From an uncultured Candidatus Saccharibacteria bacterium (lineage in GTDB: Bacteria; Patescibacteriota; Minisyncoccia; Phycocordibacterales; CAYSCM01): a stretch of 64,000 nucleotides of DNA. The stretch spans positions 32,001-96,000 of the forward strand of contig CAYSCM010000001.1 of the NCBI GenBank assembly GCA_964429815.1. Reading direction: 5' to 3'. The translations under genes and the position numbers were made by a program. Positions 4,398-31,246 of the stretch are shown piece after piece. Below the pieces are notes generated by a model. The model made no database searches and had not been told where the DNA came from. It was given only the letters and a program-made list of their open reading frames with translations. Numbering within the stretch: the stretch's first letter is position 1; each line of letters begins with the position of its first letter.

Positions 4398-4426
4398 TTT
4401 GATGTGAGCGTGCTTTAGGTATAGTG
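4398..4426 (+). promoter_or_regulatory. Candidate sigma70-like promoter for the methyltransferase gene
   Basis: TTGATG, then 15 nt, then TATAGT lies just upstream of GGAG and the ATG at 4432. The spacing is short. Confidence 0.3.
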
Positions 4427-4431
4427 GAGCG

Positions 4432-5394: not shown

Positions 5395-6299
5395 CTTCTC
5401 CACGCGCTCAGGTCGCGCCCGGTAAATGCCTCGAGTTTTTGCAGTTCGGGTTCATAGCGAGCGCGGAGGGCTTCTTTGAGCTTCGGGTCGAGCGTCCCGT
5501 AGCTAGCTTCCCCGGTCCCCGCCCTCGTGTCGATGGAGCGCACTACTTTTTGGTGGAGCGGCGTTTTGCGGAAGAGGGAGAGGAGGGGCTCTCCGAATGG
5601 CAGGGCTTTGAGTAGCTTCCGCGCCCTGAGCGCGTGTCTGCGCAAGAGTGTCGCTCCGGCGGAATTTATGGTCGTGGCGAGCGAGGGCGGCACGAACGAG
5701 GCATCGACGCCGATGAAAGAAAAGATATCTCTCATATATTTTTTTGGGTCGGCACGCATATCGTCATAGAACGTAATGAGTATCTGGTCGCGGGAAAATA
5801 CCTTGAGATAATTTTCGAGGTGCTTCATATAGAAGCTCTCCTCGATAAACGACGGTTTAGTTTTAATAATTTCCTCAAGGGTTGGGAGCTCATGTGCGCC
5901 CTTTAGCTTCGTGTACATGTAGTGGGAAAAAAAGCGCTCCGTAGGGTTTCGCAATACCGCAATGATCTTCGCTTTAGGAAAATGTGTACGGAGGCGCTCC
6001 GGCACCTCGGGTGCGTGAATATAGATAGGAGTGACTTCTCCGTATACCCTCTTCCCTACACAGTGACCAAAATGTTCAAAATACCCTTCGAGAGCGCCGT
6101 TGTATTTTGTTTTCCCCACCAAATCAGTGCGCCAGAAACTTTGCGTCGTGTTAAAAAAGTTGAGCTCTTTGGGTTCGGAAACACAGACCTCGGGGTGCTC
6201 TTTGAGACATTGGTGGAGCCAGGTGGTGCCCGTCCGCTCCGGACCAATCACGAAGAAATCAATGGAAAAAGGCTTTGCTGTAGATGAAATGGTACTCAT
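5391..6299 (-). CDS. Sulfotransferase family protein (PAPS-dependent, carbohydrate sulfotransferase-like)
   Basis: FFVIGPERTGTTWL matches the 5'-PSB motif (PKSGTTW). IAVLRNPTERFFSHY matches the 3'-PB motif (RNPxD...S.Y). The start overlaps the upstream gene stop in an ATGA arrangement. Confidence 0.75.
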   Translation of the reverse strand: MSTISSTAKPFSIDFFVIGPERTGTTWLHQCLKEHPEVCVSEPKELNFFNTTQSFWRTDLVGKTKYNGALEGYFEHFGHCVGKRVYGEVTPIYIHAPEVPERLRTHFPKAKIIAVLRNPTERFFSHYMYTKLKGAHELPTLEEIIKTKPSFIEESFYMKHLENYLKVFSRDQILITFYDDMRADPKKYMRDIFSFIGVDASFVPPSLATTINSAGATLLRRHALRARKLLKALPFGEPLLSLFRKTPLHQKVVRSIDTRAGTGEASYGTLDPKLKEALRARYEPELQKLEAFTGRDLSAWRS

Positions 6300-6931
6300 G
6301 AGGCCGTCGGGATGGATTCCTTGTCGCGGTTTGAGAAAAACAGGTAGTCGACGATGGCGTGGAAGAAAACCGCGTGAAGCGCCTCAACGGGACCGTAGGC
6401 ACCTTTTCCTGTCTCAATGATTATCTTGTGGTGACAGAGGCTCTTCGCTTTGCCTCCGTCAAAACCAAGAACGCCTATCGCCGTGCCGCCCTTAGCGCAT
6501 ATGTACTCGATCGCGCGAAGCACATTGGGGGAATTGCCACTTGCGGAAATGACGATGAGCACATCGTCGGGACGAAAAATGTGCTTAAGCTGGTCCGCAA
6601 AAACGTTCTCGTAGCCGACATCGTTCCCGAGCGCCGTCACGGCGGCGATATTGTTGAGCGCGTGAATACGAAACGGCTTTTCTTCCGTACCACCCCCGTT
6701 CGTGGTGAGATCGGCCGCAAAGTGAGCCGCCATGGCAGCGCTCCCCCCGTTGCCGGCGATGTAGATCGTAGAGCCCCTCTCCCGGGCCTTTTGAAGCACG
6801 TCGATAATCTCCTCGACCGCTTTGGAATCTACGGCGGAAGCAAGCTCGAAGGCATGCGCAAGATACCCTTCCATAAATTCGGGTACCGATCCTTTTGTCT
6901 TTTGATAGATGGTATCGACGTGTCCTCTCAT
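6296..6931 (-). CDS. gmhA: Phosphoheptose isomerase (sedoheptulose-7-phosphate isomerase, SIS domain)
   Basis: It is a single SIS-domain protein of about 211 aa. STIYIAGNGGSAAMAAHFAADL is the GmhA signature. It is translationally coupled on both sides. Confidence 0.8.
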   Translation of the reverse strand: MRGHVDTIYQKTKGSVPEFMEGYLAHAFELASAVDSKAVEEIIDVLQKARERGSTIYIAGNGGSAAMAAHFAADLTTNGGGTEEKPFRIHALNNIAAVTALGNDVGYENVFADQLKHIFRPDDVLIVISASGNSPNVLRAIEYICAKGGTAIGVLGFDGGKAKSLCHHKIIIETGKGAYGPVEALHAVFFHAIVDYLFFSNRDKESIPTAS

Positions 6932-7932
6932 AGCGTTGTGAGCACCCCGCGGATGAGCTTCCCTTCCTCGAGGTCTTTGAGGGCGGCTCCTATCTCGTCG
7001 AAGGAATACTCTTTCGTAAGTAACTTATCCAAGCACATGACCTTCGGGTTTTCAACGTATTCACGCGCGTAGCGAGGAATGTCGCGGTCGAGCTCGCTCT
7101 CTCCGCCCCAGGTGCCGTAAAGCTTTTTGCCCTTGATGAGCCCGAAAGGGTTGATCGATATGGTTTCCCCGGGCGCAAGGTTTCCTGCAATAACGACGGT
7201 CCCGGCGTCCTTGACCGCGCGGTAGGCGCTCTCCATGGCGCCCTTGTTTCCCGAACACTCGACGGCCACATCGAAATCCTTTCCCTGAAACTCTTCGGCA
7301 GAGATCGCTTCATCGACGCCGAGCTCCTTTTTCGCATGCGCGAGCTTCCACGGAACGACGTCGATCGCGGTAACGTGAGCACCCTTCATGACGGCTCGAA
7401 TGAGTGCACTCGCTCCGATCCCCCCGATGCCGAATATAACCACTCGTTTGCCGTTGAGGTCTCCTAGGCGGTCGATGATACCCATGCCGGTCGGCACCGC
7501 GCACCCAAGAAGTGCCGCAATCGCGGGCTCCACCCCTTTTGACACCTTGGTGACACGATTCTCTGAGACGACCGCAAGCTCGGTAAACGTCGCCACGGAG
7601 CCACCGTTTACCTTCCCTTCTTTGCTTTGATACGTCGGCACCGGAGCGGATATACCCTCTCCAAGGATCCAACTTGCAACCACATAATCTCCGCTCCTTA
7701 CTTTCTGCACGCCTTCTCCGGCCGCGACCACCTCCGCTGCGGCTTCATGTCCCAATAAGTGGGGAATATATTCCGCTCCTTTCCTGCCGCGGATTTCATT
7801 GAGTTGGCTGTGGCAAAGTCCTGTCGCTAGCACTTTAATAAGTACCTGCCCCTTTTGAAGGGAGGGAACCTCAAGCTCCTCGATGGAGAGCGGTCCACCG
7901 ACGACGCGGAGTACTGCAGCGCGCGTTTTCAT
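6928..7932 (-). CDS. Zinc-type alcohol/sugar dehydrogenase (MDR superfamily)
   Basis: GHEAAAEVVAAGEGV is the zinc-ADH GHE motif. GIGGIGASAL is a NAD-binding GxGxxG. The likely start is MKTRAAVL at 7932; the ORF track extends to 7998. Confidence 0.75.
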   Translation of the reverse strand: MKTRAAVLRVVGGPLSIEELEVPSLQKGQVLIKVLATGLCHSQLNEIRGRKGAEYIPHLLGHEAAAEVVAAGEGVQKVRSGDYVVASWILGEGISAPVPTYQSKEGKVNGGSVATFTELAVVSENRVTKVSKGVEPAIAALLGCAVPTGMGIIDRLGDLNGKRVVIFGIGGIGASALIRAVMKGAHVTAIDVVPWKLAHAKKELGVDEAISAEEFQGKDFDVAVECSGNKGAMESAYRAVKDAGTVVIAGNLAPGETISINPFGLIKGKKLYGTWGGESELDRDIPRYAREYVENPKVMCLDKLLTKEYSFDEIGAALKDLEEGKLIRGVLTTL

Positions 7933-7933: not shown

Positions 7934-8587
7934 CTAGGGGATAAACCAGTAGTAGTCACCCGTGTAGCCGACCTCGGCGAAGAGTTTTTTCCAATCATCG
8001 ACAGATAGGATGGTCTTTGCAGTAAGATTCCACTTCATCATGCGATCCTTCTCTTCTTCATGGTGGTAGGCGTCGACGGTAATGAACGAGTGTTTTCCTT
8101 TCACACGCTCAATCTCTCGAAGAGCCTCTTTACACTCAGGCAGTGGTAGGTTGTGAATGGTGTTAATCGAAATCACGAGATCGTAGGATTTATCCGCAAA
8201 TTGACTAAGATTTCTTGCATCTCCAACCGATACTGCGCCCGCAATTGAGGGCATGGCATTTTCGATAGCGTAGGAGGAAACATCAATACCGCGAACCACC
8301 ATGTGGGGAAGCCAATAGAGAAAATCATTAAGCATAAATCCCTTAGCACACCCGACATCAAGTACCGAAGAGTTGTTGTTGAGTCCGTAGTAATTTATGA
8401 AATCCCGAACCACCGGTACCCACCTCCCATCATAGCGGAAGCCGCCGTAGCCCTGATCCCTGGTGCCATCAAAAAACTCCCTGCCAAACTTTCGGGCAGT
8501 AGCAACATCCTCAGGAGACTTTTGTCCTCGAGCTTCAATGTTGCGTTTGGCTTTTGGATATTTCGAAAGAAGATCGATTTCTGCCAT
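7934..8587 (-). CDS. SAM-dependent methyltransferase
   Basis: VLDVGCAKG is motif I. It is 217 aa, a size typical of O-antigen/NDP-sugar modifying methyltransferases. Confidence 0.65.
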   Translation of the reverse strand: MAEIDLLSKYPKAKRNIEARGQKSPEDVATARKFGREFFDGTRDQGYGGFRYDGRWVPVVRDFINYYGLNNNSSVLDVGCAKGFMLNDFLYWLPHMVVRGIDVSSYAIENAMPSIAGAVSVGDARNLSQFADKSYDLVISINTIHNLPLPECKEALREIERVKGKHSFITVDAYHHEEEKDRMMKWNLTAKTILSVDDWKKLFAEVGYTGDYYWFIP

Positions 8588-8596: not shown

Positions 8597-10366
8597 TTAT
8601 TTTTTTTCGGGAAGAAGCTTAACCATCATGTTGTCATTGAACTCTTTTCTTGCAAGTAGCGGCTCGGGATCCTCGAGCGGCCGACCGAACTTTACCTGCG
8701 GGATTACGCGGTGCTTCGGGTTAATCTCGATGTTACAAAACACAGGCCCCCTCATCGCGAGCACCTTCTTAACTCCCCCGCTCAACTCGCGGTTCTTCTT
8801 GATCGTAATGGTTTTGAAGCCAAAGGAGGAAGCAATTTTGGCAAAGTCTGGGAACGCAAGTCCTCCCCCTTCCGAAGACGCAAGATACGCCGAATTAAAC
8901 CACTGATCTTGAGTCTGCTGTATCATACTGTAGCCGTGGTTATTCAATACAAAAATCTTGATCGGAAGTTTGTGCTTGAGAAGGGTACTTAACTCTTGCA
9001 AATTCATTTGGAGTGAACCATCTCCGGTTACACAAATAATTGATTTCTTGTTAAGCGCCAGGCTTACCCCAATGCTCGCCGGCAAAGCCCACCCCATCGC
9101 GGTGTTGTTCCAATCGTGGTAAAGACGCTGACCTTTCTTGAAGGAAAATCCCTGCATCATCCATGCGACCGTGCAGCCGGTATCAATGACCATTACTTCG
9201 TTCTGACGCGTGTAGCGAGAGAGCTCCTCAACAAATACATACGGATTGACCCCTTTCTCTTTGTAGTACGCGGGTGGGCACATGGGATATTTTTTCTTCC
9301 ATGCGGCAATACGTCTAAGCCAGGGTGAGATGTCGTTTTTTGGCAAACGTGCGGCGTGCTTTTGAAATGCCTTCAGCAGCTCTTTTGCGTCACCGGAGAT
9401 ACGCACATCGACTTTCAGGCCAAATTTTTTAAACTTCTTAAGTTCGTAGGGGTCAATATCGATGACTATCTTTTTTGCCTCTCGCGCAAACGTGTTGGGA
9501 GGACTACCCGTCGATTTGGTATCAAGACGGCTTCCGATTGAGAGGATCATGTCAGCGTTCTGGACGGCAAAATTGGCAAACCGCGTGCCGTGAGTGCCAA
9601 AGGTGCCGATGCGAAGTGGATGACTCTCTGGCAGGAGATCCCCTGCCCCCCATGTGAGTGCCGCAGGAAAGCCGAGTGTTTCCAAAAGTGAGATGGCCTC
9701 TTTTTCGGCCCCCGCGAGGTGGATTCCCCACCCAAACACAACGACGGGGCGCTTCGCCTGCCGTAGATAGTTTATGCTTCGAGCTACATCAACCGGCGCT
9801 TTCTTCTTCTCGACGGAGGGTGTAAACGAGGGAAGCTCTCCTGGATTAATTTCTCTGCGCTGAATGTCGTCGGGAATATCGAGCACTACGGGTCCTGGCC
9901 TACCACTTCGCGCCAGAAAGATCGCTTTCTCAAGCTCGTAGCGTATGCGCCTCTCATCGGTGATGAGTATCGCGTACTTAGTGATAGGACGATACATTTC
10001 GACCGTTGCCGTTTCTTGAAAACCCACTTGCCGCACGTTGGTATGACCTTTCATCCTAAAGGTGGCTACTTGGCCGGTAATAAATATGACGGGTACCGAA
10101 TCGTAGTAGGCGGAGCACACTCCCGTGATCATGTTCGTAGCACCTGGCCCTGAGGTGGACATCGCTACACCGAGGCCACCCGTGGCCCTCGCGTACCCGT
10201 CGGCAGCCATTGCCCCCGCTTGCTCGTGTCCTGGACAGATGACCTCCATTCCCCCCGTGCGCGCCACCGAATGAATAAGGTGAAGGGATGCTCCGCCGGA
10301 GATGGCAAAGACATGCTTCACCCCTTCTTTGCGGAGAACCTGTGCTACGTAGTCGGTGAGCTTCAT
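8597..10366 (-). CDS. Thiamine-pyrophosphate-dependent enzyme, acetolactate synthase large-subunit-like (YerE-like candidate for sugar C2-branch attachment)
   Basis: The N-terminal MKLTDYVAQVLRKEGVKHVFAISGGASL...GPGATNMITG has the TPP PYR domain. The central domain and C-terminal VTGDGSLQMNLQEL...N TPP-binding GDG motif are also present. It is 589 aa. Confidence 0.85.
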   Translation of the reverse strand: MKLTDYVAQVLRKEGVKHVFAISGGASLHLIHSVARTGGMEVICPGHEQAGAMAADGYARATGGLGVAMSTSGPGATNMITGVCSAYYDSVPVIFITGQVATFRMKGHTNVRQVGFQETATVEMYRPITKYAILITDERRIRYELEKAIFLARSGRPGPVVLDIPDDIQRREINPGELPSFTPSVEKKKAPVDVARSINYLRQAKRPVVVFGWGIHLAGAEKEAISLLETLGFPAALTWGAGDLLPESHPLRIGTFGTHGTRFANFAVQNADMILSIGSRLDTKSTGSPPNTFAREAKKIVIDIDPYELKKFKKFGLKVDVRISGDAKELLKAFQKHAARLPKNDISPWLRRIAAWKKKYPMCPPAYYKEKGVNPYVFVEELSRYTRQNEVMVIDTGCTVAWMMQGFSFKKGQRLYHDWNNTAMGWALPASIGVSLALNKKSIICVTGDGSLQMNLQELSTLLKHKLPIKIFVLNNHGYSMIQQTQDQWFNSAYLASSEGGGLAFPDFAKIASSFGFKTITIKKNRELSGGVKKVLAMRGPVFCNIEINPKHRVIPQVKFGRPLEDPEPLLARKEFNDNMMVKLLPEKK

Positions 10367-10370
10367 GGCG

Positions 10371-11228
10371 CTACCAGGGCATCTGCTCCTTAACGCTTAT
10401 AAAGAGTGTCCCGTCACGGTAGCTCTCGGGCATATCGCCGGCTTTTGTGACAAGTCCCCACCCTATCTTCTGCGAGAACAAATTGACGCCGGAGCCTGTA
10501 AAGTGCTTGAAAATGTGCTTGGCATTCTCCGCGGTCCCAACCTCGACCAGGCCGTCACAGCTCTCCCAATCGGAAGCTTCGGTCGAGAGGAGTACTTCCT
10601 TCTCGTGCCCTTCGACGTCCATTTTGATGAGATCAGCGCCGGCGAGAATCGGCCCGAACGCTTCGAGCTCCACGGAGAACATTTCCCGATCCCCGTAGAC
10701 GTCGTGCTTTGCTCCCGAGAGGTGACTCCCCGTAGTGTTGCCGAGCACTCGGGTAAAATCTGCTGAACCCGAGCGACTTGAGACGGCGCTGTTGTGAAGG
10801 CTGGCAGAATTACATCCGTTACGCGCAAGATTTTTTTTGAGGATATCGAAATGAACCGGATCGGGCTCGTAGGAGGAAACCTTAAAACCACAACGACAAA
10901 GGATAATCGAGTGAAGTCCAATATTTGCTCCGAGGTCTACAACGCTCGTATAGCGATTGCGATTGCGCCAGTAAAAACTGAAAATAACGAGTTCATTGAG
11001 GTCAAAGAGATTCCGCGAATCGACATTACCCATGTTGTGGTATGGAAACGAGATATCTCCAAATGGCGGAAAGTGGACCGACTCTTTTGAATCAACGGGA
11101 AAGAGCCTCTCCACTTCCTTCCGAGCTTTGGCGGCACGTTCTTTGAATGGCGCGCTTGTCGGAGTATGAGAGGGTAATTCCTGCGGGAGCGTGGCAAAGA
11201 TATTCTCCAAAAAAGCCGAGGATTCCAT
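10371..11228 (-). CDS. FkbM-family SAM-dependent methyltransferase
   Basis: VVDLGANIG and KMDVEGHE are FkbM-domain hallmarks. Confidence 0.7.
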   Translation of the reverse strand: MESSAFLENIFATLPQELPSHTPTSAPFKERAAKARKEVERLFPVDSKESVHFPPFGDISFPYHNMGNVDSRNLFDLNELVIFSFYWRNRNRYTSVVDLGANIGLHSIILCRCGFKVSSYEPDPVHFDILKKNLARNGCNSASLHNSAVSSRSGSADFTRVLGNTTGSHLSGAKHDVYGDREMFSVELEAFGPILAGADLIKMDVEGHEKEVLLSTEASDWESCDGLVEVGTAENAKHIFKHFTGSGVNLFSQKIGWGLVTKAGDMPESYRDGTLFISVKEQMPW

Positions 11229-11244
11229 GACGGGAGATACCCTA

Positions 11245-12042
11245 TCAGATTTTTCGTAATTTTAATAGCTCGGGGTCACGCGCGAGCGTTTTTGAAAAGC
11301 GCGCGCTCCCCCACGCGTCATAGACAACGTGTACATCTCTTCCCCCGACTACCTTTTTTGCTGACCCAATGACCCAGTCGAGACAGTCGAGAACTCGCTC
11401 CATGGGTATAAAGTCCCCGCGCGCTAGCTTTTTCCTTGTTCGAGCATACGTATCGCCCGCGCGCCTGCCGGCGGTGATAGTCTCCTGATGGATTTTGCTG
11501 CGCACCCAACCGGGGCCTATGGTGACGAAGCGAGCATCGTTCAGCTCCGCGTCGAGGATTTCAAACATTTTTATGGTCGCTATCTTTGAAACGGTATACG
11601 CCGAGAAATTGCGTGGTGCGTTGTTCGTCCCCCCACCAGAAAATGAAATTATGCAGGGTTTTTTGGATTTCGAACGTCTGGGCAGAAGTCCGTGGATGAT
11701 GCCCATGTGAGAAAGAAAATTGAGGCGAATTGATTTTTCCCAGTCTCCGAAAGAAACGCGTTGAAAAGCTCCTATGGGCGTAAGGGTCGCCGGAGCCAGT
11801 ACAAGAACGTCCCAGGCCACCGCGAGGCTCCGCAACGTACGTAGCGCCCTATGTACAGAGGCAGGTCGAGCGACGTCACAGTGTATAAGGTGTGCGCCAA
11901 GTTTTTGCAATCCTTCTGTGGTGTGGCTGCCGGTTCTATACGTGCCGAAAACCGCCCAGCCGCGGTTTAAGTATCTTCGAGCTATGGCGGTGCCGATATC
12001 GCTTGAAATGCCGACGATGATTATTGAGCCAGTTTTTTTCAT
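11245..12042 (-). CDS. Short-chain dehydrogenase/reductase (SDR)
   Basis: GISSDIGTAIA is the TGxxxGIG cofactor motif. It is about 265 aa. Confidence 0.7.
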   Translation of the reverse strand: MKKTGSIIIVGISSDIGTAIARRYLNRGWAVFGTYRTGSHTTEGLQKLGAHLIHCDVARPASVHRALRTLRSLAVAWDVLVLAPATLTPIGAFQRVSFGDWEKSIRLNFLSHMGIIHGLLPRRSKSKKPCIISFSGGGTNNAPRNFSAYTVSKIATIKMFEILDAELNDARFVTIGPGWVRSKIHQETITAGRRAGDTYARTRKKLARGDFIPMERVLDCLDWVIGSAKKVVGGRDVHVVYDAWGSARFSKTLARDPELLKLRKI

Positions 12043-12215
12043 GACGCGCTCTTTTGGTTGATGACGCTCGCGTTTTTCACGAATATGCCTATACTACACT
12101 ACTGCGCCACCGCAGGTTTCCAACCTACAAAACGCAGTGGAAAAGAAAAATTAATGGGTACGGTGAATTACAACGGGTCGAAACTTGACCCGTCTCTGGT
12201 AGAGTTGTACAGAAC

Positions 12216-13496
12216 ATGCGCCAAAAATTGAGCACCCTTGTCGAAAAACTGACGGTCGCGACCGGCATAAACTTTTCCTACCTCCTGCGCGGAGGGTCCT
12301 GGGCGTTTTCCGAGCAGGTGGTTACCAACGCCATCTCCCTCCTCCAGGCCATCGCGTTTGCCAACCTTATCTCTCCGCAGACGTATGGAGTGTTTAGTGT
12401 CGTGCAATCGTGGATAGGCATTCTCGTTACGTTCGCGCTCGGGAGCCTTCCAAACGCGCTTATAAAAAGCGTTGCGGAAGGCAACGACGGGGAGCTCAAA
12501 CGCGGATTTCTCCTCAAGCTTAAGTATGCTCCCCTTGCCTCTCTGCTCGGGCTCGGATTCTCCTTCTACTATCTATTTATAGGGAACAATACGACCCTCG
12601 CTTACTCGTTTCTCATTGCTTCGTTTTGCATGCCGCTTTACGTAGCGCTTCCGCAGGTCACGTTCTTCCTGTTCGCCAAGGGAGCATTTCTCGATAAGTT
12701 CATCGTGCAAGTGAGCGTTAGTCTTGCTTCGCTGGCAGGAATGACTATTTCAATGCTCTATTTCGGTTCTGTTCCATACCTGATGCTCGCCTACTTCATT
12801 CCACCGATCATCGTGAACGGCATCTTTTTTTGGCGCACGCTGCGCACCAAGGTTCATAATGCCAAGACCGGCGCGAACACGGAGCGGTTTGCGCTCCACC
12901 TTACGGGCATGAGTCTTCTTGGTTCGATAACCAAAAACATCGACCAACTCCTCATGTTCCACTTCAGCGGCGCAGTTCAGCTCGCGGTATATAAATTTGC
13001 CTTGATTCCCATACGAAAGCTGGAGACCTTTTTCCAGATCATCCTCGATCTGCTCCTCCCGCGATTTGCCAAGAGAGAGTACCGCGAGATTTACCAGGGG
13101 TTCGACAGAAAGCTCCTCCTTTCAGGCGCTTTTTCGTTGACGGTCGTGGCTGTTTATTTTTTCAGCATCCCCTACCTCTACAAGCTCTTTTTCCCGAAAT
13201 ACACCGACGCGGTGATATACTCGCGACTCCTTTCCCTGCTGTTTTTGTTTGGCCCTCTCTCATACGTTCAGCAGCTTTGGCTTGCGAAGGCGGAAACTAA
13301 ACGTCTCTATTTTTTAAAAATTCTCGGTGATTCCACCCGGATCTCACTTCATGTCGCGCTTATTCCCGTATTTGGGATCGCCGGTGCAGTGGGAAGCCGG
13401 ATGGTCGCATCCTCCTTTGTCAGCACCGCGGCATTCATTTTATTTTTGAAGGATAGGAGACGGTACGGTAAAGGCTCGAAGCGCCAATCGCAGTAA
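12216..13496 (+). CDS. Polysaccharide/O-antigen flippase, Wzx-like (MOP/PST family), polytopic membrane protein
   Basis: It is 426 aa with about 12 hydrophobic segments. The N-terminal region NAISLLQAIAFANLISPQTYG is typical of PST-family flippases. Confidence 0.65.
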   Translation: MRQKLSTLVEKLTVATGINFSYLLRGGSWAFSEQVVTNAISLLQAIAFANLISPQTYGVFSVVQSWIGILVTFALGSLPNALIKSVAEGNDGELKRGFLLKLKYAPLASLLGLGFSFYYLFIGNNTTLAYSFLIASFCMPLYVALPQVTFFLFAKGAFLDKFIVQVSVSLASLAGMTISMLYFGSVPYLMLAYFIPPIIVNGIFFWRTLRTKVHNAKTGANTERFALHLTGMSLLGSITKNIDQLLMFHFSGAVQLAVYKFALIPIRKLETFFQIILDLLLPRFAKREYREIYQGFDRKLLLSGAFSLTVVAVYFFSIPYLYKLFFPKYTDAVIYSRLLSLLFLFGPLSYVQQLWLAKAETKRLYFLKILGDSTRISLHVALIPVFGIAGAVGSRMVASSFVSTAAFILFLKDRRRYGKGSKRQSQ

Positions 13497-13508
13497 AAAA
13501 CCTTACTA

Positions 13509-14732
13509 TCACGCGCTCCCGCGGGGAGCGAGGGTGTGCGGCCAGGTAAGTACGCCAAGATCTGCCTCCTCGATGTTCTCTTTCCATTTTCGCATATCCG
13601 AAACCGAGATAAGATGTGCAAATTCCTTTTTCAGGGTTTCGAGTGTTTCCTGTTCCCAGGAAACTTTCTGAAATGCTTGTCGTTGCCACGGAAACGAGTC
13701 ACCTTCCTTGAGCCAGCTGTAGTTGTTGGCGACGTCGGGCATCACGAAACTGGACGCAAAGTACGCTATATCATCCCGCAAAAAGGCCCACGAGAGAGGG
13801 CCACTCGAGACGCACAGGTAAAAGAGCGCGCGCTGTACTAGGGCTAGATCCTGCTCGCTGTTCGTCCCATAGTCTTTGGTAAAGATAACGTTTGGCCCGC
13901 GCAGCGCTTCATTGATCTCGGCTCCCCTGCCTAAAATAATGAAGGTGCACTCGGGATACTGCTTCGAACAGTACCTAAAAAATTCTCGCCAGACTTTCGG
14001 TTTAGCGTTTCGGTGCGAGGCAAAAAAGGGATTGCTGCGCAGGCTGACCGCTACGGCGTATCCAGGCGCATGTTTTTTGATAAATGCTCGTGCCCACGCA
14101 TCAGTGAGGGCGGGTATCTTCAGCTTCGGTAGAGATCCGTACCGCTCGTAGAATTCCTTGAAAAACAAGTAGCCACGACGGTAGGGAGAATTGCTATTTA
14201 CGTAGTCAAAAAGAGATGGGGTGAGGATATACTTTCCCCGGCGCTCAGCGAGAAAAGACTCGAATTCATCCCTGGAATCGAAAATGTGGACCGACCCCAA
14301 CTTTGGATTGGTACGCAAAACAGGAAAAATCTCAATGAAGTGGAGCGGGACATTTTCTTTGGTGATCCAACCCGCATATTTAGAATGTCGACTAGGTCTT
14401 TCTCTGTCGTATACAAAAGCGTAGTCGATCTTTTCAACTTCATGGATGTGGGCCTCGCATAGCGTCCTGATCTGGTGCTCGATCAGTATCCCAAATGAGA
14501 CATCGGTGGTGAGAAAATCATTAATGCCCAGAATCCTTCGATCATTTCGCTCGTGGCGACGCAGAACGTAGCGGGCATAGCGCATCGAACCAACAATGCC
14601 TCGACGATACCAACGTTCATACACGCGATACGTCAAAAAATTGACTGCGACATCAAAGGCGGGTACCAAAAAGGGGGGCAGCATTTTTCGAAAATGCACA
14701 ACCGCAGGTTTCTTGTTGAGTGCGCGCAACAT
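13509..14732 (-). CDS. Hypothetical protein with divergent GT9 (heptosyltransferase-like) C-terminal signature
   Basis: The C-terminal DLALVQRALFYLCVSSGPLSWAFL resembles the GT9 motif (L..LAALI..A.L.VGNDSGP.HLAAA). The N-terminal 150 aa are unrecognised. It is translationally adjacent to the HldC-like gene. Confidence 0.4.
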   Translation of the reverse strand: MLRALNKKPAVVHFRKMLPPFLVPAFDVAVNFLTYRVYERWYRRGIVGSMRYARYVLRRHERNDRRILGINDFLTTDVSFGILIEHQIRTLCEAHIHEVEKIDYAFVYDRERPSRHSKYAGWITKENVPLHFIEIFPVLRTNPKLGSVHIFDSRDEFESFLAERRGKYILTPSLFDYVNSNSPYRRGYLFFKEFYERYGSLPKLKIPALTDAWARAFIKKHAPGYAVAVSLRSNPFFASHRNAKPKVWREFFRYCSKQYPECTFIILGRGAEINEALRGPNVIFTKDYGTNSEQDLALVQRALFYLCVSSGPLSWAFLRDDIAYFASSFVMPDVANNYSWLKEGDSFPWQRQAFQKVSWEQETLETLKKEFAHLISVSDMRKWKENIEEADLGVLTWPHTLAPRGSA

Positions 14733-14733
14733 G

Positions 14734-15231
14734 TTAGCGTCGGTAGGTTGAATTTTTTTTGATTGCCGTAATGATATCGCGTGTGCTTAATTTTTTGTCT
14801 TTCGTAAAGGTAATCCTGCAACCCACCTTCTGAGCGCTTTGTATTTCCTCTGCGAAATCTTTATTCGGCGGGATACCGCGGTAATCGGGACCGCGCACAT
14901 ACAGGTCCGGCTTGAGAGCACGTATGAATCTTGATCCATTGTTAGCATCATTAATGAACACGAAATCAACCGGGCGAAGCTGCGAGAGCATGTAGGCCCG
15001 CATATGCTCGGTGAACACCGGGCGGCCGATACCTTTTTGTCTTCGTACCTGTTTATCACTTGCGATCGCAACCACGAGCACATCACAGAGGCGCTTTGCG
15101 GATTCAAAATGCATCGCATGCCCGGGGTGGAGCAGATCATAGTTGCCGTTACAAAAACCGATGATCTTCCCCTCCTTTTTACGTCGAGCAAGTATGGGAC
15201 GAAGCTGCTGAAAGGAGATGATGCGTGCCAT
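14734..15231 (-). CDS. Cytidylyltransferase-like nucleotidyltransferase; best match to the heptose 1-phosphate adenylyltransferase domain (HldC / RfaE domain II). TagD-like glycerol-3-P cytidylyltransferase is not excluded.
   Basis: GFCNGNYDLLHPGH is the HxGH motif. VVAIASDKQVRRQKGIGRPVF...LKPDLYVRGPDY parallels E. coli HldE domain II (VNSDAS..LKG..RPV...PDLLVKGGDY). Confidence 0.65.
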   Translation of the reverse strand: MARIISFQQLRPILARRKKEGKIIGFCNGNYDLLHPGHAMHFESAKRLCDVLVVAIASDKQVRRQKGIGRPVFTEHMRAYMLSQLRPVDFVFINDANNGSRFIRALKPDLYVRGPDYRGIPPNKDFAEEIQSAQKVGCRITFTKDKKLSTRDIITAIKKNSTYRR

Positions 15232-15233
15232 AG

Positions 15234-16238
15234 CTACGGCTGATGGATATACTCGCGTGGATACTTTTTAAGTACATCCCACGACTCAGTGAGCCAAGAG
15301 ATAACTTCCTCAACCCCTCGCTCGAGCGGAATGCGCGGTTTCCACCCAAGAGCCTTCGCGGTCCCTCCAAACGAAAGCGCATAGACCTTATCCTGTCCAG
15401 GACGACCTTCACTCACTTTGGCGACTTCATTGAAACGAACCCCCATCTTGCGACACACGAGCTCAACGACGCCTCGAATGGAGCTCTGAGTGTGTGTCGA
15501 AAAATGATACACGCCACCAGACTTCCCTTTCTGGATCACGAGCTCAATACCGCGACATACATCCTCGATGTGTATGAAGCTACGCTTGATGGTGCCCCCT
15601 TGGTGAAGCGAGAGTTTAGTACCAACAAGGACCGAGAGGACCGTTTTTGGGATTACTTTGAAGAGCTGCTGATGCGCTCCATAGACATTCGCCGAGCGCA
15701 CAAAGCACACCGGAAAACCCTTGGTCTTATGGAGCGCGATGAGGAAGAGATCCCCTGCTCCCTTTGAGGCGGCGTAGGGCGTCGTCGGATTAAAGTAGGT
15801 AAGCGTCTCGGGGCCGCTGTATGAACCGTAAATTTCCGGCGTCGATATTTGTATGTACTTTTTTAAATAGGCCGTGTCTTTGAGGTGATCCGCGAGAGCA
15901 ACAATACCCAAGCAGTTGGTTCTAAACCAATCAAGCGGTTTTTTCCAACTAGCCTCAACGATGCCTTGGGCCGCGAAATTCACGACTATGTCAGGACGCT
16001 CGCTATCAAGGAGAGCGGCAAGTTTTTTTACATCTTTGTTTACGTCGAGCTTATGGAAACGATAGCGGCGCGCGGAGGGTTTTTTCCCTTTGTAGAGGTA
16101 GGGCAAAAATTCAGGCTCCTTCTCAGATGAGCGACTAATACCGATGACTATGTAATTTGTTTTCCGAAGCAGGTAATCGACGAGGTGTCCTCCCGAAAAA
16201 GAATTACTCCCGATGATAGCTATTTTTTTCAGAGCCAT
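15234..16238 (-). CDS. NAD-dependent NDP-sugar 4,6-dehydratase/epimerase (extended SDR, dTDP-glucose 4,6-dehydratase-like)
   Basis: IAIIGSNSFSGGHL is a Rossmann motif. YAASKGAGD is the YxxxK catalytic motif. Confidence 0.7.
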   Translation of the reverse strand: MALKKIAIIGSNSFSGGHLVDYLLRKTNYIVIGISRSSEKEPEFLPYLYKGKKPSARRYRFHKLDVNKDVKKLAALLDSERPDIVVNFAAQGIVEASWKKPLDWFRTNCLGIVALADHLKDTAYLKKYIQISTPEIYGSYSGPETLTYFNPTTPYAASKGAGDLFLIALHKTKGFPVCFVRSANVYGAHQQLFKVIPKTVLSVLVGTKLSLHQGGTIKRSFIHIEDVCRGIELVIQKGKSGGVYHFSTHTQSSIRGVVELVCRKMGVRFNEVAKVSEGRPGQDKVYALSFGGTAKALGWKPRIPLERGVEEVISWLTESWDVLKKYPREYIHQP

Positions 16239-16249
16239 GTGAGCAAAGT

Positions 16250-17317
16250 TTAAAACGGACCGGTAAAACGCTTATCGGGCACATCGAGCGGCGTCGTGCG
16301 TTTCTTCTCTTCCGCTGCGACGAGCGACTCTAATTTTTTTGTATCCCCCTCAACCATAGAGACCACCATTCTGGCCATATCGATATAGCGCGGGTAGTAC
16401 TCATTGGCAAGCGCAGGCGTTGATGGGCTTGGCAGATCCGGCGCGGTAAGCCGGCGAGGGTTGGTCCGTAGACTGATTGTCGAATCCTCCGCGACTTGTG
16501 TGATTATCTCTCCCGCGACCCCGAAGCTGCGATGCCCGAGATCGGCCACAAGCAGCCGTCCTGTTTTTTTGACTGAGCGTGCTATTGTCTCGGTATCAAG
16601 AGGTTTAAGACTTCGCACATCGACGACCTCGGCGCTCACGCCAACCTTTTGGAGTAACTCCTGCGCACGCAGAGCCTCGTAGGTGAAGTAGGACGTTGTT
16701 ACAAGGGAAACATCGCTTCCCCGGCGCATTATACGAGCCTTGCCGATGGGCACCCTATAGTGACCCTCGGGAACATCTTCAGCAAGATCATGGAGCCATC
16801 GATGATCGATATATATGACCGGATTATCGTCCTCAATCGCGGCGAGCATCAGTCCCTTGGCATCGGAGGGGGTCGCGGGCATCACTACCTTGAGCCCGGG
16901 GATGTGCGCATAGAGGGCTTGGAGATTTTGTGAATGCTGCGGGCCCTGCCCCCATCCCATGCCGATGGTCATTTTCACCGTAAGGGGTACCGATTGCGCT
17001 CCGTTGTACATGTACGACCATTTCGCCGCATTGTTGATCACCTGCTCGATCGCAAGAAGGCTGAAGTCAACTCTCTGGTGCGTTAGGACTGGGCGCATCC
17101 CATTTACCGCCGCACCGATGCAGATCCCGGTTACCGCGAGCTCAGAAGTTGGCATATCAAGTACTCGTTTTGCGCCATGTTTTTTCTGAAGTCCCGTCGT
17201 CGTGCCAAAAATTCCCTTTGGATCAGGGACACCCAATCCTATAAGGAACACCGACTTGTCTTTAGCCAGAGCAAGATCAAATGCTTCTCGTATTGCTTGC
17301 GAATATGTTTTACGCAT
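16250..17317 (-). CDS. TPP-dependent 2-oxoacid dehydrogenase E1 component, beta subunit-like (transketolase-like pyrimidine-binding and C-terminal domains)
   Basis: MRKTYSQAIREAF...SVFLIGLGV...MPTSELAVTGICIGAAVNGMRPV is a canonical E1-beta N-terminus. The start is probably the ATG at 17317; the ORF track extends to 17401. It is coupled to the E1-alpha gene. Confidence 0.8.
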   Translation of the reverse strand: MRKTYSQAIREAFDLALAKDKSVFLIGLGVPDPKGIFGTTTGLQKKHGAKRVLDMPTSELAVTGICIGAAVNGMRPVLTHQRVDFSLLAIEQVINNAAKWSYMYNGAQSVPLTVKMTIGMGWGQGPQHSQNLQALYAHIPGLKVVMPATPSDAKGLMLAAIEDDNPVIYIDHRWLHDLAEDVPEGHYRVPIGKARIMRRGSDVSLVTTSYFTYEALRAQELLQKVGVSAEVVDVRSLKPLDTETIARSVKKTGRLLVADLGHRSFGVAGEIITQVAEDSTISLRTNPRRLTAPDLPSPSTPALANEYYPRYIDMARMVVSMVEGDTKKLESLVAAEEKKRTTPLDVPDKRFTGPF

Positions 17318-18269
17318 AGAGGTGTTCGGCAAGAGCTTCCCTCTTTGGAAACGGGCTCTTTTCGGCAAAACGGAATGCTCCATCAACCTGTCGAATCGCA
17401 TCGTTTCGGATTTTTTCGATGAGGTCGCTAGAAAGCACCTCTTTCTTCAGGAGCTCACGCTCGAACATCGCGACAGGATCCTTCTTCTTCCACACGGCAA
17501 CCTCCTTCGGATCACGGTACCCAAGCTCGTCATCAAAATTTGGGCCGCAGTGCTCACGGTAGCGGTAGGTCGAAAATTCCAAAAAAACTGGACCCGAACG
17601 GACGGCTTTTCTGGCTTTTGTTGCGGCAGCGAGAACGGTCGAAACATCGTTACCATCGTGGCGCGACGCAGGAATGCCGTGCCCTTTGGCAAGCGCGTAG
17701 ATGGGGCGTTTAGGTTGGCGCTCAGAGAGATGTGTGTACACCGAGAAGCGGTTATCTTCGCACACAAATACAATGGGTAGTTTGTGGAGCGCCGCAAAAT
17801 TGAGACTTTCATGGAAAGCCCCCTCCTCGACGGTACCATCCCCAAAAAACGAAACGATGACGCGGTTTTCCTTCCGGAGCTTCGCTGCAAACGCCGCTCC
17901 CGTTGCAATCGGAATGCTGTTGCCGACGATGGGTGTGGCCCCGCCAAAACCGGCCTTGAGATCAATGAGGTGCATGGAGCCGCCCTTGCCACCGCAGCAG
18001 CCCGTAGCTTTGCCATAGAGCTCAGCCATCATCGCATTGAGGTTGCCGCCTTTAGCGAGGTAATGAGCGTGACAGCGATGGGTACTATACACGAGATCCT
18101 CTGCCGTGAGCGCCGCGCACACCCCAACCGCAACGGCCTCTTGGCCGATCGAGAGGTGGACGGGACAGCGCATCTTTCCTTCGCTATAGCGACGAGCTAT
18201 CGTCTCTTCCGTCGTGCGTATGAGAATGAGCTTGCGGTAGAGCGATAGGAGTGCTTCATTTTTCTTCAT
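17310..18269 (-). CDS. TPP-dependent 2-oxoacid dehydrogenase E1 component, alpha subunit-like (pyruvate/acetoin dehydrogenase E1-alpha family)
   Basis: GDGTVEEGAFHESLNFAAL and MRCPVHLSIGQEA are the E1-alpha TPP-binding motifs. No E2 or E3 genes are nearby. Confidence 0.85.
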   Translation of the reverse strand: MKKNEALLSLYRKLILIRTTEETIARRYSEGKMRCPVHLSIGQEAVAVGVCAALTAEDLVYSTHRCHAHYLAKGGNLNAMMAELYGKATGCCGGKGGSMHLIDLKAGFGGATPIVGNSIPIATGAAFAAKLRKENRVIVSFFGDGTVEEGAFHESLNFAALHKLPIVFVCEDNRFSVYTHLSERQPKRPIYALAKGHGIPASRHDGNDVSTVLAAATKARKAVRSGPVFLEFSTYRYREHCGPNFDDELGYRDPKEVAVWKKKDPVAMFERELLKKEVLSSDLIEKIRNDAIRQVDGAFRFAEKSPFPKREALAEHLYA

Positions 18270-18270: not shown

Positions 18271-19248
18271 CTACGTAAGCCCTAGCTTCTGCATCATCTT
18301 GACGTTGTGGTAGAGAGGATTGTTGAGACCGTCTGTTATGTCGCCCCGTTCGTATGCTGCCTTTATAGAGCGCACTGCCTCGGGGATATCAAACTGGGCC
18401 TTAAAGCCGAGTACACGCTCTATCTTGTCGGCATTGAGCTTGTAGGAGCGGTTATCGACGATCGAAGCCGATACCTTGATCGAAACTGCGGGGTCGTTGA
18501 GAACATCCTTGATGAGTTTCCCCGTATCGAGCACCGAAATATTCCAGAACCCGGTATTGAAGACTTCGCGATGAATTTTCTCCTGCGGAGCTGCGAGGAG
18601 CGTCTCGTAAATACGCACCATGTCGCGGATATTTATATGGGGTCGCAACTGGCTCCCGCCGAAGATGGTTATTTTCTTGTTTACGAGCGCATGCATGGTA
18701 AGTAAGTTCACGGTGAGGTCAAGTCGCAAACGCGTCGCGTAACCACACACCGTGCCCGGACGCACCGTCACGTAGTTGAGGTTGGTACCCTCAAGAACCT
18801 TTTCACACTCGAGCTTGTACTTGCCGTAATCCGTGATCGGCCTTCCCACCCTCTCCTCGGTCACTTCCCCCTCTTGGATACCATAGGTGCTCGCGGAGCT
18901 TGCGTAGATAAACCGACCGATGTCGTTTTCCTTCGCCGCATCGATGACGTTGAAGAACGCGTCGTAGTTGATCGATTTCCCGAGCGTTGGGTCGAGCTCG
19001 AAGCTCGGGTCGTTCGACACGCACGCAAGGTGAATGAGGGAATCGCAGCCTTTGGCCGACTCGATTAACTTTTTTCGGTCACGGATATCTCCCCGGATCT
19101 CAGTGAGGTTTTTCTGCTTGATGCCGGAAAAAACATCGCCGTAGAGATAGAGGTCGTACACAACGACGCTATGGCCCGCTTCGAGAAGTTTCGGAACGAG
19201 AGCGCTGCCGACGTATCCCGCTCCGCCTGTGATGAAGATCTTGGTCAT
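18271..19248 (-). CDS. NAD-dependent epimerase/dehydratase (extended SDR)
   Basis: The N-terminal motif is MTKIFITGGAGYVGS. YGKYK is the YxxxK motif. Confidence 0.75.
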   Translation of the reverse strand: MTKIFITGGAGYVGSALVPKLLEAGHSVVVYDLYLYGDVFSGIKQKNLTEIRGDIRDRKKLIESAKGCDSLIHLACVSNDPSFELDPTLGKSINYDAFFNVIDAAKENDIGRFIYASSASTYGIQEGEVTEERVGRPITDYGKYKLECEKVLEGTNLNYVTVRPGTVCGYATRLRLDLTVNLLTMHALVNKKITIFGGSQLRPHINIRDMVRIYETLLAAPQEKIHREVFNTGFWNISVLDTGKLIKDVLNDPAVSIKVSASIVDNRSYKLNADKIERVLGFKAQFDIPEAVRSIKAAYERGDITDGLNNPLYHNVKMMQKLGLT

Positions 19249-19250: not shown

Positions 19251-20309
19251 TTATGCGAGAAGTTCGCTTATAAAATCTTTGAGTTCCGCTTTCTTGATAG
19301 GTCTCTTATTGCCCACTATGCCTATCGCAAGTGCTCCGACTGCATTGCCGATAAAGCCGACCACGTCGAGCGGCACCCGGTTATGTACCAACGGGGCCGT
19401 CAGGGCCAGGAAAGCATCTCCCGCCCCCATTCGGTCGGTAAACGAGCTCCTCATCGTGGGGGCGTTCGTGATCTTCCCCCGATTATATAGGTAACAACCC
19501 ATGGGCCCTCCGGTCACAATGAAGTTTTTGTACCGGAGCTTGGTGGCGACGTTTCGCATGACGCTTATTAGGTCGTGATTGCGCTCGCGCGCCTCGAGCC
19601 GGAGCTCTCGCTCATCGGCGCAAACATAGTCGGCTTTTGGAAATACCGAAAGGGTATGAAACCCCATATTACCCGCGTTCGCCTGGGCCGTAAGGGCCAA
19701 AAAGGGTGAACGCTGCATAAGCTCCTTACGGCTCGCCCGGTCGAGCATGCCGTGCCCGAAATCACCGCAGATGACCAGATCGTGGGACTTGAAGAGCTTG
19801 CGAAGTGTCCGGACGACCTCCGCGCTCTCGCTTGCGCTCGGAGACTTGTCGCTCATAACGTAAAACTCGAGGAGTTTCTGAAGCGGTACCTCTTCCATAA
19901 ACCGCTTCTTCATGATGGTGGGAGCGCTCTTTTTGTAGAAAAAGACTGGCTTGACGTTTTTCGGGAGCGAGCGGCGAACGAATGCTTCTTGGGAATTTTC
20001 CTCGCCGAGCATGGCAAAAAGCGTCACCTCCTTGCAAAAGCTCGCGAGATGGTTGGCGATGGCGATGGACCCTCCGGCGTAGAGCTCTTTTTTTATTTCT
20101 TTGAGCGCGACGATGGGTTCCTTAGCGGACTTTCCAATGGACCTTCCGAACGTATATTCGTCGAGAATAGCCTCGCCCACCACGAGGACTCGCGTGTCTT
20201 TCATCGCTTCGAGCACATCAAAAAGGTACTCTTTCGAATACCTCTTCTTGAAACGCATCAGGTACGAATTCCAGTCGGTGCTAAGATTCTCTTTCATGGA
20301 TTCCGACAT
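19251..20309 (-). CDS. PfkB-family sugar kinase, D-glycero-beta-D-manno-heptose 7-phosphate kinase-like (HldA / RfaE domain I)
   Basis: VLVVGEAILDEY parallels RfaE-I VLVVGDVMLDRY. The C-terminal GAGDAF is a PfkB motif. The start is likely the ATG at 20309 (MSESMKEN); the ORF track extends to 20612, but that would overlap the upstream gene. Confidence 0.7.
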   Translation of the reverse strand: MSESMKENLSTDWNSYLMRFKKRYSKEYLFDVLEAMKDTRVLVVGEAILDEYTFGRSIGKSAKEPIVALKEIKKELYAGGSIAIANHLASFCKEVTLFAMLGEENSQEAFVRRSLPKNVKPVFFYKKSAPTIMKKRFMEEVPLQKLLEFYVMSDKSPSASESAEVVRTLRKLFKSHDLVICGDFGHGMLDRASRKELMQRSPFLALTAQANAGNMGFHTLSVFPKADYVCADERELRLEARERNHDLISVMRNVATKLRYKNFIVTGGPMGCYLYNRGKITNAPTMRSSFTDRMGAGDAFLALTAPLVHNRVPLDVVGFIGNAVGALAIGIVGNKRPIKKAELKDFISELLA

Positions 20310-31243: not shown

Positions 31244-31246
31244 TCG

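Follow-up and report, generated by a model that had tools for sequence, protein, structure and literature searches.

The window analyzed here, a 64-kb stretch of contig CAYSCM010000001.1 from an uncultured Candidatus Saccharibacteria bacterium, carries a glycan island that takes up the whole of its 1-45 kb region, and within this island the minus strand between ~5.4 and 24.7 kb forms a dense run of sugar-pathway genes, hereafter the cassette. Embedded in the cassette are two thiamine diphosphate (ThDP)-dependent systems that a first-pass annotation had singled out, a homolog of the acetolactate synthase (ALS) large subunit (8597..10366, minus strand, 589 aa) and a free-standing pair of E1 subunits, alpha (17310..18269, minus strand, 319 aa) and beta (16250..17317, minus strand, 355 aa). 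All three open reading frames (ORFs) were found to be intact, and their domains were confirmed by Pfam. The accompanying genes it had listed were also recovered, namely a 4,6-dehydratase-like extended short-chain dehydrogenase/reductase (SDR; 15234-16238), a short-chain SDR (11245-12042), methyltransferases (10371-11228 and 7934-8587), and a Zn-dependent alcohol dehydrogenase (Zn-ADH), which lies at 6928-7932, slightly outside the range stated for the observation. Intergenic distances in the cassette span -8 to +16 nt, the exceptions being 56 nt ahead of a sugar kinase gene and one gap of 1466 nt between the E1 block and the ALS block, which is occupied by a plus-strand gene for a Wzx-like flippase (12216..13496; Polysacc_synt match, seven predicted hydrophobic segments). 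The region had been described as one co-directional operon; the genes are indeed all on the minus strand and tightly packed, but because the opposite-strand flippase gene sits in the gap, the two blocks constitute at least two separate transcription units rather than a single operon.

The ALS-like protein matched all three domains of its ThDP-dependent architecture (PF02776, PF00205 and PF02775, E 1e-34 to 3e-39) and retains the catalytic HEQ and GDG motifs. In AHAS (acetohydroxyacid synthase), as known from the plant and E. coli enzymes, the arginine of an RFDDR motif belongs to the acceptor site and a Trp serves as specificity residue. RFDDR was present in E. coli IlvI and in seven of seven IlvH-linked metagenomic sequences, and QW in seven of these eight, whereas the window protein has RLDTK and QQTQ at the corresponding positions. 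Among solved structures its closest match was 8rph at 373 bits, with 5ahk, which we take to be PpYerE, at 310 bits, and plant, yeast and bacterial AHAS at 298-302 bits. Structure 8rph is that of JanthE, a YerE-like, ketone-accepting carboligase with ThDP and flavin adenine dinucleotide (FAD) (PMC12188165), and the Thr of the window protein is as in JanthE. Neighbor-joining reconstruction placed E. coli IlvI and the seven IlvH-linked sequences in one clade, with JanthE and other ALS-like proteins from sugar clusters standing opposite it together with the window protein and its relatives, a split with 100/100 bootstrap support; the phylogenetic comparison with AHAS that had been proposed as a check thus came out on the side of the YerE-like enzymes. 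Since a metagenome search with the ALS-like family alignment was dominated by true AHAS, these sequences were used only as outgroups and as IlvH controls: an IlvH neighbor was present, by tblastn, in 35 fetched loci with ALS-like proteins 31-37% identical to that of the window, where tblastn with IlvH found nothing (best E 5.5). A true biosynthetic AHAS (IlvB/G/I with IlvN/M/H) was considered and rejected, for although fold, cofactor motifs and ~34% identity are shared, the window protein scores 448.8 bits against the AHAS equivalog TIGR00118 (cut-off 538.35), lacks a nearby small-subunit gene, has RFDDR and Trp replaced, and falls outside the AHAS clade. We therefore classify it as a putative YerE-like carboligase, binding ThDP and probably also FAD, and not as an AHAS.

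With the characterized YerE-like carboligases (YerE, ErwE, MMAR_2332, MyGE, PpYerE and JanthE) the window protein shares the three-domain ALS-type architecture, GDG and the catalytic Glu, the absence of the AHAS acceptor-site Arg and Trp, and a setting in a nucleotide-sugar cluster beside a keto-generating SDR and a reductase. It differs from them in being just ~36% identical to JanthE and in forming its own clade, a close-knit family (60-69% identity) that extends over several phyla and whose sources are named as Nomurabacteria, Nitrospirota, Saganbacteria, Elusimicrobia, Chlamydiae and Pirellulales; a scan of genome contigs with the ALS-like protein retrieved only distant relatives of 36-46% identity. 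Members of this clade are consistently accompanied by two methyltransferases, one of which is sometimes fused to the carboligase (a class I methyltransferase in P0029, 844 aa, and P0047, 825 aa), and usually by an E1 pair. Further, the sugar genes of the cassette block (~5.4-24.7 kb) are heptose-type, as opposed to the RfbF/G/H-type set for CDP-3,6-dideoxy-4-keto-hexoses that serves the characterized enzymes.

The E1 alpha subunit (PF00676, E 2.7e-68) retains the GDG...DN motif for ThDP and Mg and a His equivalent to human H263, and E1 beta, comprising Transket_pyr and Transketolase_C domains, retains the equivalents of Glu59 and His128 of the Geobacillus enzyme. The E1 beta ORF was listed as 16250-17401; its start most likely lies at 17317, which is preferred because it overlaps the E1 alpha stop by 8 nt (ATGCGTAA) and because the same call was made on an identical Logan contig, and the overlap is consistent with translational coupling. 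Both subunits fell short of the cut-offs for the E1 of pyruvate dehydrogenase (PDH), with scores of 326 for E1 alpha against TIGR03182 (cut-off 394) and 280 against PRK09212 (cut-off 321). Neighbor-joining trees separated E2-less from E2-linked E1 sequences, bootstrap support being 100/100 in the beta tree and 93/100 in the alpha tree. At its C-terminus E1 beta is extended by ~30-40 residues, the last of which form a P.D.P...F.GPF motif that does not vary among six cassette sequences; the tail recurs in an Azospirillum E1 beta and, in a GPY version, in a Streptomyces E1 beta, and the F.GPF ending is missing from the three E2-linked E1 beta sequences compared. In an exhaustive HMMER search, a GP[FYW] ending was shared by 63 of the 150 best representative clusters (P0251-P0400), 24 of the top 28 among them, and some of these are alpha-beta fusions; the tail marks a large E1 beta subfamily.

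The claim that no E2 or E3 accompanies the pair was borne out across the window. A Pfam scan covering nearly all non-overlapped ORFs of at least 150 aa, together with six-frame tblastn for which AceF, Lpd and IlvH of E. coli plus two plasmid-encoded E2 and two NeuB sequences served as queries, identified no E2, E3, AHAS small subunit or NeuB in the 64 kb (best E = 0.04). Partners of the E2 or E3 type were likewise absent from the 10-kb flanks of nine related loci, while in two E2-linked control loci (L097 and L098) the E2 gene lies directly downstream of E1. A housekeeping PDH E1 was rejected on the combination of sub-threshold scores, no E2 in the window and a clade separate from E2-linked E1 sequences: the heterotetrameric E1 of PDH and acetoin dehydrogenase shares fold, catalytic residues and 33-43% identity with the window pair, and differs from it in having E2/E3 partners and in lacking the GPF-ended E1 beta extension. 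By its motifs the pair is predicted to be catalytically intact, but not of the complex type.

Free E1 alpha and beta subunits with no E2/E3 nearby are known in sugar pathways as alpha-KADH2 pairs (AviB1/AviB2, AlmDI/DII, Pau11/12 and KbDH-alpha/beta), to which the window pair is likened by context rather than by direct sequence comparison. By analogy with these, the catalytic residues that the window E1 keeps would be expected to support addition of a C2 (acetyl) unit from pyruvate to a keto-sugar. The window pair differs in its setting, which is that of surface-glycan loci of non-actinomycetes, with heptose activation genes and a YerE-like enzyme. Its alpha subunit is ~53-60% identical to, and groups apart from E2-linked sequences with, the E2-less E1 of a Streptomyces secondary-metabolite cluster. 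This Streptomyces pair lies on plasmid pSGRIFU1 of Streptomyces griseofuscus (L095, 11986-24783), where it adjoins condensation-domain, acyl carrier protein (ACP), phosphopantetheinyl transferase (PPTase), thioesterase and ketosynthase genes as well as gamma-butyrolactone regulators, and this locus is a non-sugar use of the E1 clade.

Comparison of related loci revealed that the two systems are inherited both together and apart. Seven other loci carry an ALS-like protein at least 60% identical to that of the window (L002, L003, L004, L093, L101, L102 and L103), and in all of these, as in the window, the gene belongs to a nucleotide-sugar cluster that also encodes a predicted keto-sugar-forming enzyme and a candidate reductase for the branch. 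The E1 pair lies beside the ALS-like gene in six of the seven (all but L103), which also hold the heptose genes, both extended SDRs, the short-chain reductase, the methyltransferases and the Zn-ADH, and which include Elusimicrobia, Chlamydiae and Pirellulales assemblies and a contig with a Nomurabacteria-annotated protein. Top matches of the ALS-like and E1 families also fell on contigs of equal sizes (97,952, 114,005, 53,341 and 38,599 bp), and no E1 was found at any of 86 loci whose ALS-like protein is at most 49% identical to that of the window. L103 comprises a five-gene ALS sub-module only, consisting of FkbM methyltransferase, adh_short, ALS-like, class I methyltransferase and Zn-ADH genes. 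Conversely, the E1 module occurs without an ALS-like gene at L091, L092, L094 (plasmid NZ_CP054615.1 of Azospirillum oryzae KACC 14407, HUE56_RS00795-00850) and L096 (pDMC1 of Solidesulfovibrio magneticus). A Nitrosomonadaceae metagenome-assembled genome (MAG), another metagenomic contig and the A. oryzae plasmid are among these E1-only loci, and retain the SIS-domain gene, the kinase-nucleotidyltransferase and an extended SDR of the 18271-19248 type; on pDMC1 the E1 pair is found with kinase, nucleotidyltransferase and SDR genes, the SIS gene lying ~9 kb downstream. The cassette is therefore modular, each ThDP system having a conserved sub-module and being found at some loci in the other's absence: the E1 pair travels with heptose activation genes and a dehydrogenase gene, the YerE-like enzyme with reductases and methyltransferases of its own. 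That the two systems are independent, as had been proposed, is accordingly upheld by this distribution, E1 standing alone at four loci and the YerE-like enzyme at L103.

In the window, the YerE-like sub-module comprises a short-chain reductase (11245..12042, minus strand; adh_short), which is a candidate branch ketoreductase and lies at most two genes from the ALS-like gene in L002, L003, L004, L093, L102 and L103; an FkbM-family methyltransferase (10371..11228, minus strand; TIGR01444 78.5, above the cut-off of 37.7), found next to, or one gene away from, the ALS-like gene in most related loci; a class I methyltransferase coupled to the ALS-like enzyme (7934..8587, minus strand; Methyltransf_11/25/31); and the Zn-ADH (6928..7932, minus strand; ADH_N and ADH_zinc_N), which recurs at 43-60% identity in all related loci, the ALS-only L103 included.

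Several loci depart from this arrangement. The E1-only loci L091 (5758-13590), L092 (7258-13971) and L094 (6732-19087) represent a second cassette type made up of one or two radical S-adenosylmethionine (SAM) genes, SIS, a kinase-nucleotidyltransferase fusion, SDR and E1 alpha/beta, with an additional NUDIX hydrolase gene in L092 and L094 and two additional DegT aminotransferase genes in L094. L003, from a Chlamydiae MAG (1-4500 and 12089-13144), has truncated E1 beta (281 aa) and dehydratase-like SDR (171 aa) genes and two DUF1016/YhcG insertions, and looks to be decaying. A different dual-ThDP sugar locus, L016 (1814-3030 and 10001-11758), joins a YerE-like gene to classical NTP-transferase, dehydratase and DegT genes, and additionally carries a split transketolase (244 aa and 160 aa), a Zn-ADH and a PfkB kinase.

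The identity of the sugar scaffold was examined through the activation genes of the cassette. A GmhA-like SIS isomerase (6296..6931, minus strand) has phosphoheptose isomerases as all 13 of its best PDB matches; an HldA/RfaE-domain-I-like sugar-phosphate kinase of the PfkB family (19251..20297, minus strand) has as its sole PDB match 4e84, a heptose-7-phosphate kinase; and for an HldC/RfaE-domain-II-like nucleotidyltransferase (14734..15231, minus strand) the best family is TIGR02199. The latter two are fused in L002, L091, L092, L101 and L102. Directly upstream of E1 alpha lies an extended SDR (18271..19248, minus strand), a putative nucleotide-heptose dehydrogenase whose top PDB match (126 bits) is 6vo6, which we take to be Cj1427, a GDP-heptose C4-dehydrogenase; this SDR type adjoins E1 alpha in the window, L002, L092 and L094. 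The second extended SDR (15234..16238, minus strand) has dTDP-glucose 4,6-dehydratases as its best PDB matches and scores 189 against TIGR01181 (cut-off 365). It belongs to a distinct subfamily, marked by GSNSFxG in every copy compared and, in the window and all but one of five related copies, by IS[TS]PE[IV]YG and YAASK, and is found in the type-1 cassettes (truncated in L003) while missing from the E1-only L091, L092 and L094; its precise activity is uncertain. Between the flippase and nucleotidyltransferase genes, a soluble, cassette-specific protein of 407 aa (13509..14732, minus strand; no transmembrane segment, homologs in L002 and L004) gave no Pfam match even at E = 1, and none to PF01075. 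Its AlphaFold2 model (pLDDT 79.5) adopts a GT-B fold, and its top nine Foldseek PDB matches were all of glycosyltransferase family GT9 (3tov, WaaC and WaaF; E 4e-6 to 4e-4, TM 0.37-0.55); lacking PF01075, the protein is at best a distant relative of the GT9 heptosyltransferases.

Because genes of the GmhA, HldA and HldC type are found together with a transferase of GT9 fold and an SDR akin to a heptose C4-dehydrogenase, the scaffold is most likely a nucleotide-heptose and not a nucleoside diphosphate (NDP)-6-deoxyhexose. The first-pass annotation had envisaged an NDP-4-keto-6-deoxy sugar as acceptor, a suggestion not sustained by activation genes whose best or sole matches are of heptose type. 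A pathway to 3-deoxy-D-manno-octulosonic acid (Kdo), assembled from the SIS, haloacid dehalogenase (HAD) phosphatase and CTP_transf_3 genes, was considered and rejected, as the SIS protein resembles GmhA rather than KdsD and KdsA is absent from the window. Similar in outline are the GDP-heptose pathways of Campylobacter jejuni (Cj1427, a 4,6-dehydratase, epimerases and C4-reductases), in which, as proposed here, an extended SDR oxidizes a nucleotide-heptose to a 4-keto intermediate ahead of tailoring. Cj1427 recycles its NADH by converting alpha-ketoglutarate to L-2-hydroxyglutarate (PMC10680097), and genes resembling the L-2-hydroxyglutarate oxidase LhgO were found in two related E1/heptose cassettes (L096, 22377-23579, and L102, 603-1796; 34% mutual identity), which fits a Cj1427-type dehydrogenase that reduces alpha-ketoglutarate. 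Unlike in C. jejuni, activation in the window would apparently go by way of HldA/HldC and ADP-heptose, C3/C5 cupin epimerases were not seen, and we propose that ThDP carboligases capture the keto intermediates, in place of a mere reduction.

With moderate confidence, we propose that the window encodes a modular cassette for a C-branched, higher-carbon heptose of a surface glycan, built with the help of two architecturally unrelated ThDP carboligases. The gene content, the intact catalytic motifs, the placement of both families outside AHAS and E2-linked E1 and the conservation across phyla are observed; the substrates and reactions that follow are all proposed by analogy. GmhA-, HldA- and HldC-like enzymes would convert sedoheptulose-7-phosphate to a nucleotide-activated heptose, probably ADP-linked, from which the two extended SDRs, the dehydrogenase (18271-19248) and the 4,6-dehydratase-like enzyme (15234-16238), would make keto-sugar acceptors, each carboligase being served by its own keto-generating SDR working on the nucleotide-heptose. 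An E1 alpha/beta heterotetramer would decarboxylate pyruvate and add the hydroxyethyl-ThDP carbanion to the sugar ketone, yielding a tertiary alcohol that bears an acetyl group, and the YerE-like enzyme would perform a second ligation of this kind with pyruvate or another 2-keto acid as donor; the model allows the two ligations to fall on one sugar molecule or on two. The short-chain reductase, the Zn-ADH and the two methyltransferases might then modify the new branch, and the GT9-related transferase and the Wzx flippase could deliver the product. Precedents exist for both ligations. Relatives of YerE join a decarboxylated 2-keto acid to a 4-keto sugar, after which a reductase works on the branch (PMC9306805), and E1-type alpha-KADH2 pairs transfer a C2 unit from pyruvate onto keto-sugars in antibiotic pathways, acetyl branching having been assigned to AviB1/B2 and shown in vitro for KbDH (PMC12247030; PMC4753412). 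Taken together, the YerE-like placement, the E2-less E1 clade and the cassette context lend support to the sugar-branching role earlier ascribed to both ThDP systems.

Beyond the genes used in this proposal, the cassette and its surroundings encode a KdsC-family phosphatase (1131-1697, plus strand; TIGR01670 114, cut-off 107), a PseF-like CMP-sugar synthetase (1702-2454, plus strand; PseF 151, below the cut-off of 206) that is 75% identical to its copy in L004, and a B12-type radical SAM enzyme (2565-4307, plus strand) resembling B12-dependent radical SAM methyltransferases. CTP_transf_3 and Hydrolase_3 genes occur again in L002, where they are fused, and in L004; in L003 the CTP_transf_3 gene is accompanied by a NeuB gene, and NeuB is found in L093 as well. 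Upstream within the E1 transcription unit lie genes for a TagF-like phosphotransferase (20354-21724, minus strand; Glyphos_transf, 65% identical in L004) and a PseC-like DegT aminotransferase (21721-22821, minus strand; PseC 284, below the cut-off of 424, compared with 160 for RfbH-like; 49% identical in L004).

A number of observations weigh against the branched-heptose proposal. All matches of the GmhA, HldA and HldC type lie under their NCBIfam cut-offs (TIGR00441, 95 against 209; TIGR02198, 101 against 345; TIGR02199, 112 against 181), and a GmhB-type phosphatase was not identified in the window, where only HAD phosphatases of the KdsC/YrbI family were found, although L093 has a histidine phosphatase at the equivalent place. 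In the 4,6-dehydratase-like SDR, S-T-P-E replaces the T-D-E of RmlB, so that the catalytic Asp is gone. L103 carries the YerE-like sub-module with no heptose genes within 10 kb. A sugar branched at C4 cannot be re-oxidized at that carbon, so that any further ligation to it would require a ketone at another position. The ThDP-enzyme trees are small neighbor-joining trees, and the PseF-like, KdsC-family and PseC-like genes, together with NeuB in L003 and L093, hint at ulosonic-acid chemistry outside the model. A bolder extension of the proposal we consider possible but doubtful: that a nucleotide-heptose is branched twice, by the E1-type and by the YerE-type enzyme, to give a sugar of at least 11 carbons, that this sugar is installed by a new GT9-related transferase family and is common on the cell surfaces of uncultivated groups as far apart as candidate-phyla-radiation bacteria, Planctomycetes and Chlamydiae, and that the GPF-tailed E1 beta marks a large clade of lipoyl-independent E1 carboligases.

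The same ulosonic-acid genes raise the alternative that the two carboligases use different donors, E1 adding a C2 unit from pyruvate while the YerE-like enzyme attaches a long functionalized 2-keto acid, possibly a NeuB/KdsC-type ulosonic acid, as a polyhydroxyalkyl branch. Long branches of this kind occur in erwiniose, caryophyllose and gastriose, and ErwE, MMAR_2332 and MyGE take functionalized C4-C8 keto acids, ErwE refusing pyruvate (PMC9306805). The KdsC-family and PseF-like genes of the cassette and the NeuB genes of L003 and L093 would fit such a donor, as would L015, in which a more distant YerE-like gene is coupled to SIS and 4,6-dehydratase-like genes and to a PanB-like enzyme that makes keto acids. 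Yet NeuB, KdsA and aldolase genes are all absent from the 64-kb window, several cassettes (e.g. L101) lack a keto-acid-making enzyme, and there would be no point in activating an ulosonic acid with CMP if it were only a donor; we therefore regard this alternative as rather unlikely.

More improbable still is a role for E1 in which no sugar is branched and a thiol or amine instead receives the acyl or hydroxyalkyl group, so that the amino sugar formed by the PseC-like aminotransferase would come to bear an unusual N- or O-acyl substituent. Genes for DegT-type aminotransferases do occur alongside E1 in the window and in L004, L094 and L096, and the close E2-less E1 of S. griseofuscus pSGRIFU1 stands beside condensation-domain, ACP, PPTase and ketosynthase genes. 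The heptose cassettes, however, contain no ACP, CoA-ligase, E2-like or acyltransferase genes, and the conserved neighbor of E1 is instead a keto-generating SDR, which fits a ketone acceptor.

The modularity described above bears directly on the suggestion, raised as an option in the first-pass annotation, that the two systems form a relay. Here the ALS-like enzyme would supply acetolactate or acetoin, the short-chain reductase and Zn-ADH would interconvert acetoin and butanediol, and E1 would cleave acetoin in the manner of an acetoin:dichlorophenolindophenol (DCPIP) oxidoreductase, the acetyl-ThDP equivalent then being spent on a single sugar-branching step. The E1 family does include acetoin-cleaving enzymes able to pass acetyl units to ketones (PMC12247030), the short-chain reductase weakly matches butanediol dehydrogenase, and the two ThDP systems are tightly co-inherited. 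Nevertheless, an obligatory relay is downgraded because each module occurs alone elsewhere, E1 without an ALS-like gene at L091, L092, L094 and L096 and the ALS-like sub-module by itself at L103; moreover, the ALS-like protein lacks the Arg and Trp with which AHAS handles a second keto acid and groups with ketone-accepting YerE-like enzymes. A relay is accordingly disfavored, and we assign it little probability. Lastly, the chance presence within a glycan island of an ordinary PDH or acetoin dehydrogenase E1 and a biosynthetic ALS is scarcely credible, for while the top NCBIfam matches would name the three proteins PDH E1 alpha, PDH E1 beta and AHAS large subunit, all scores lie below curated cut-offs, the AHAS hallmark residues are gone, E2, E3 and IlvH are absent from the 64 kb, the E1 beta tail is missing from E2-linked E1 sequences, and the same glycan cassette recurs in at least three named phyla and on the contig with a Nomurabacteria-annotated protein, all in keeping with the earlier argument against a central-metabolism role.

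As regards the proposed cassette for a C-branched heptose, what appears to be new is the union of both types of ThDP branching enzyme in one conserved, heptose-based cassette across distant phyla. We found no description of a cassette uniting E1-type and YerE-type enzymes on a heptose scaffold in the literature searched, which did not cover the survey of Krug et al. 2024; that work is said to be an in-silico survey of ~200 YerE-like and ~120 alpha-KADH2 clusters. The two classes have been reviewed separately, YerE-like enzymes as lipopolysaccharide enzymes and alpha-KADH2 pairs as enzymes of actinomycete secondary metabolism (PMC12247030). The cassette predicts an apparently common, so far undescribed surface sugar and would extend E1-type carboligases to cell-envelope glycans. 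It also provides candidate sequence markers for such enzymes, RLDTK and Thr in the ALS-like protein and the ...F.GPF tail in E1 beta, and the E1 half has cultured carriers in A. oryzae KACC 14407 and S. magneticus RS-1. Ketone-accepting ThDP enzymes are also wanted as biocatalysts for chiral tertiary alcohols.

Elsewhere in the glycan island we identified numerous GT4 genes, an AsnB-like gene, and an adjacent pair of GDP-mannose 4,6-dehydratase paralogs with a sugar C-methyltransferase (Methyltransf_14; 29975-33283), which suggests that a further methyl-branched deoxysugar is made in the same island. Sulfotransferase genes lie at 5391-6299 and 29070-29924, and another flanks the cassette in L004; since the island holds two of them, a sulfated glycan is implied. 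At the edge of the cassette, a NUDIX hydrolase gene (24721-25362), found likewise in L092, L094 and L096, may represent a nucleotide-sugar pyrophosphatase step. The right edge of the island (41719-44305) carries a TraG/VirD4-like coupling ATPase and a lamin-tail-domain protein.

Further along the window, on the minus strand between 48309 and 64000, the rRNA genes are unlinked and in an unusual order. The 23S gene, cut by the end of the window, and the 5S gene come first, and are followed by ~9 kb of protein genes (FtsW, GT4, Bac_transf, epimerase, SecD and SecF) before the 16S gene, after which a 1.9-kb ORF-poor gap precedes tRNA-Ile(GAT) and tRNA-Leu(CAG). The 16S gene is ~70% identical at most to the 16S genes of the plasmid/chromid collection, which suggests a deep-branching lineage.

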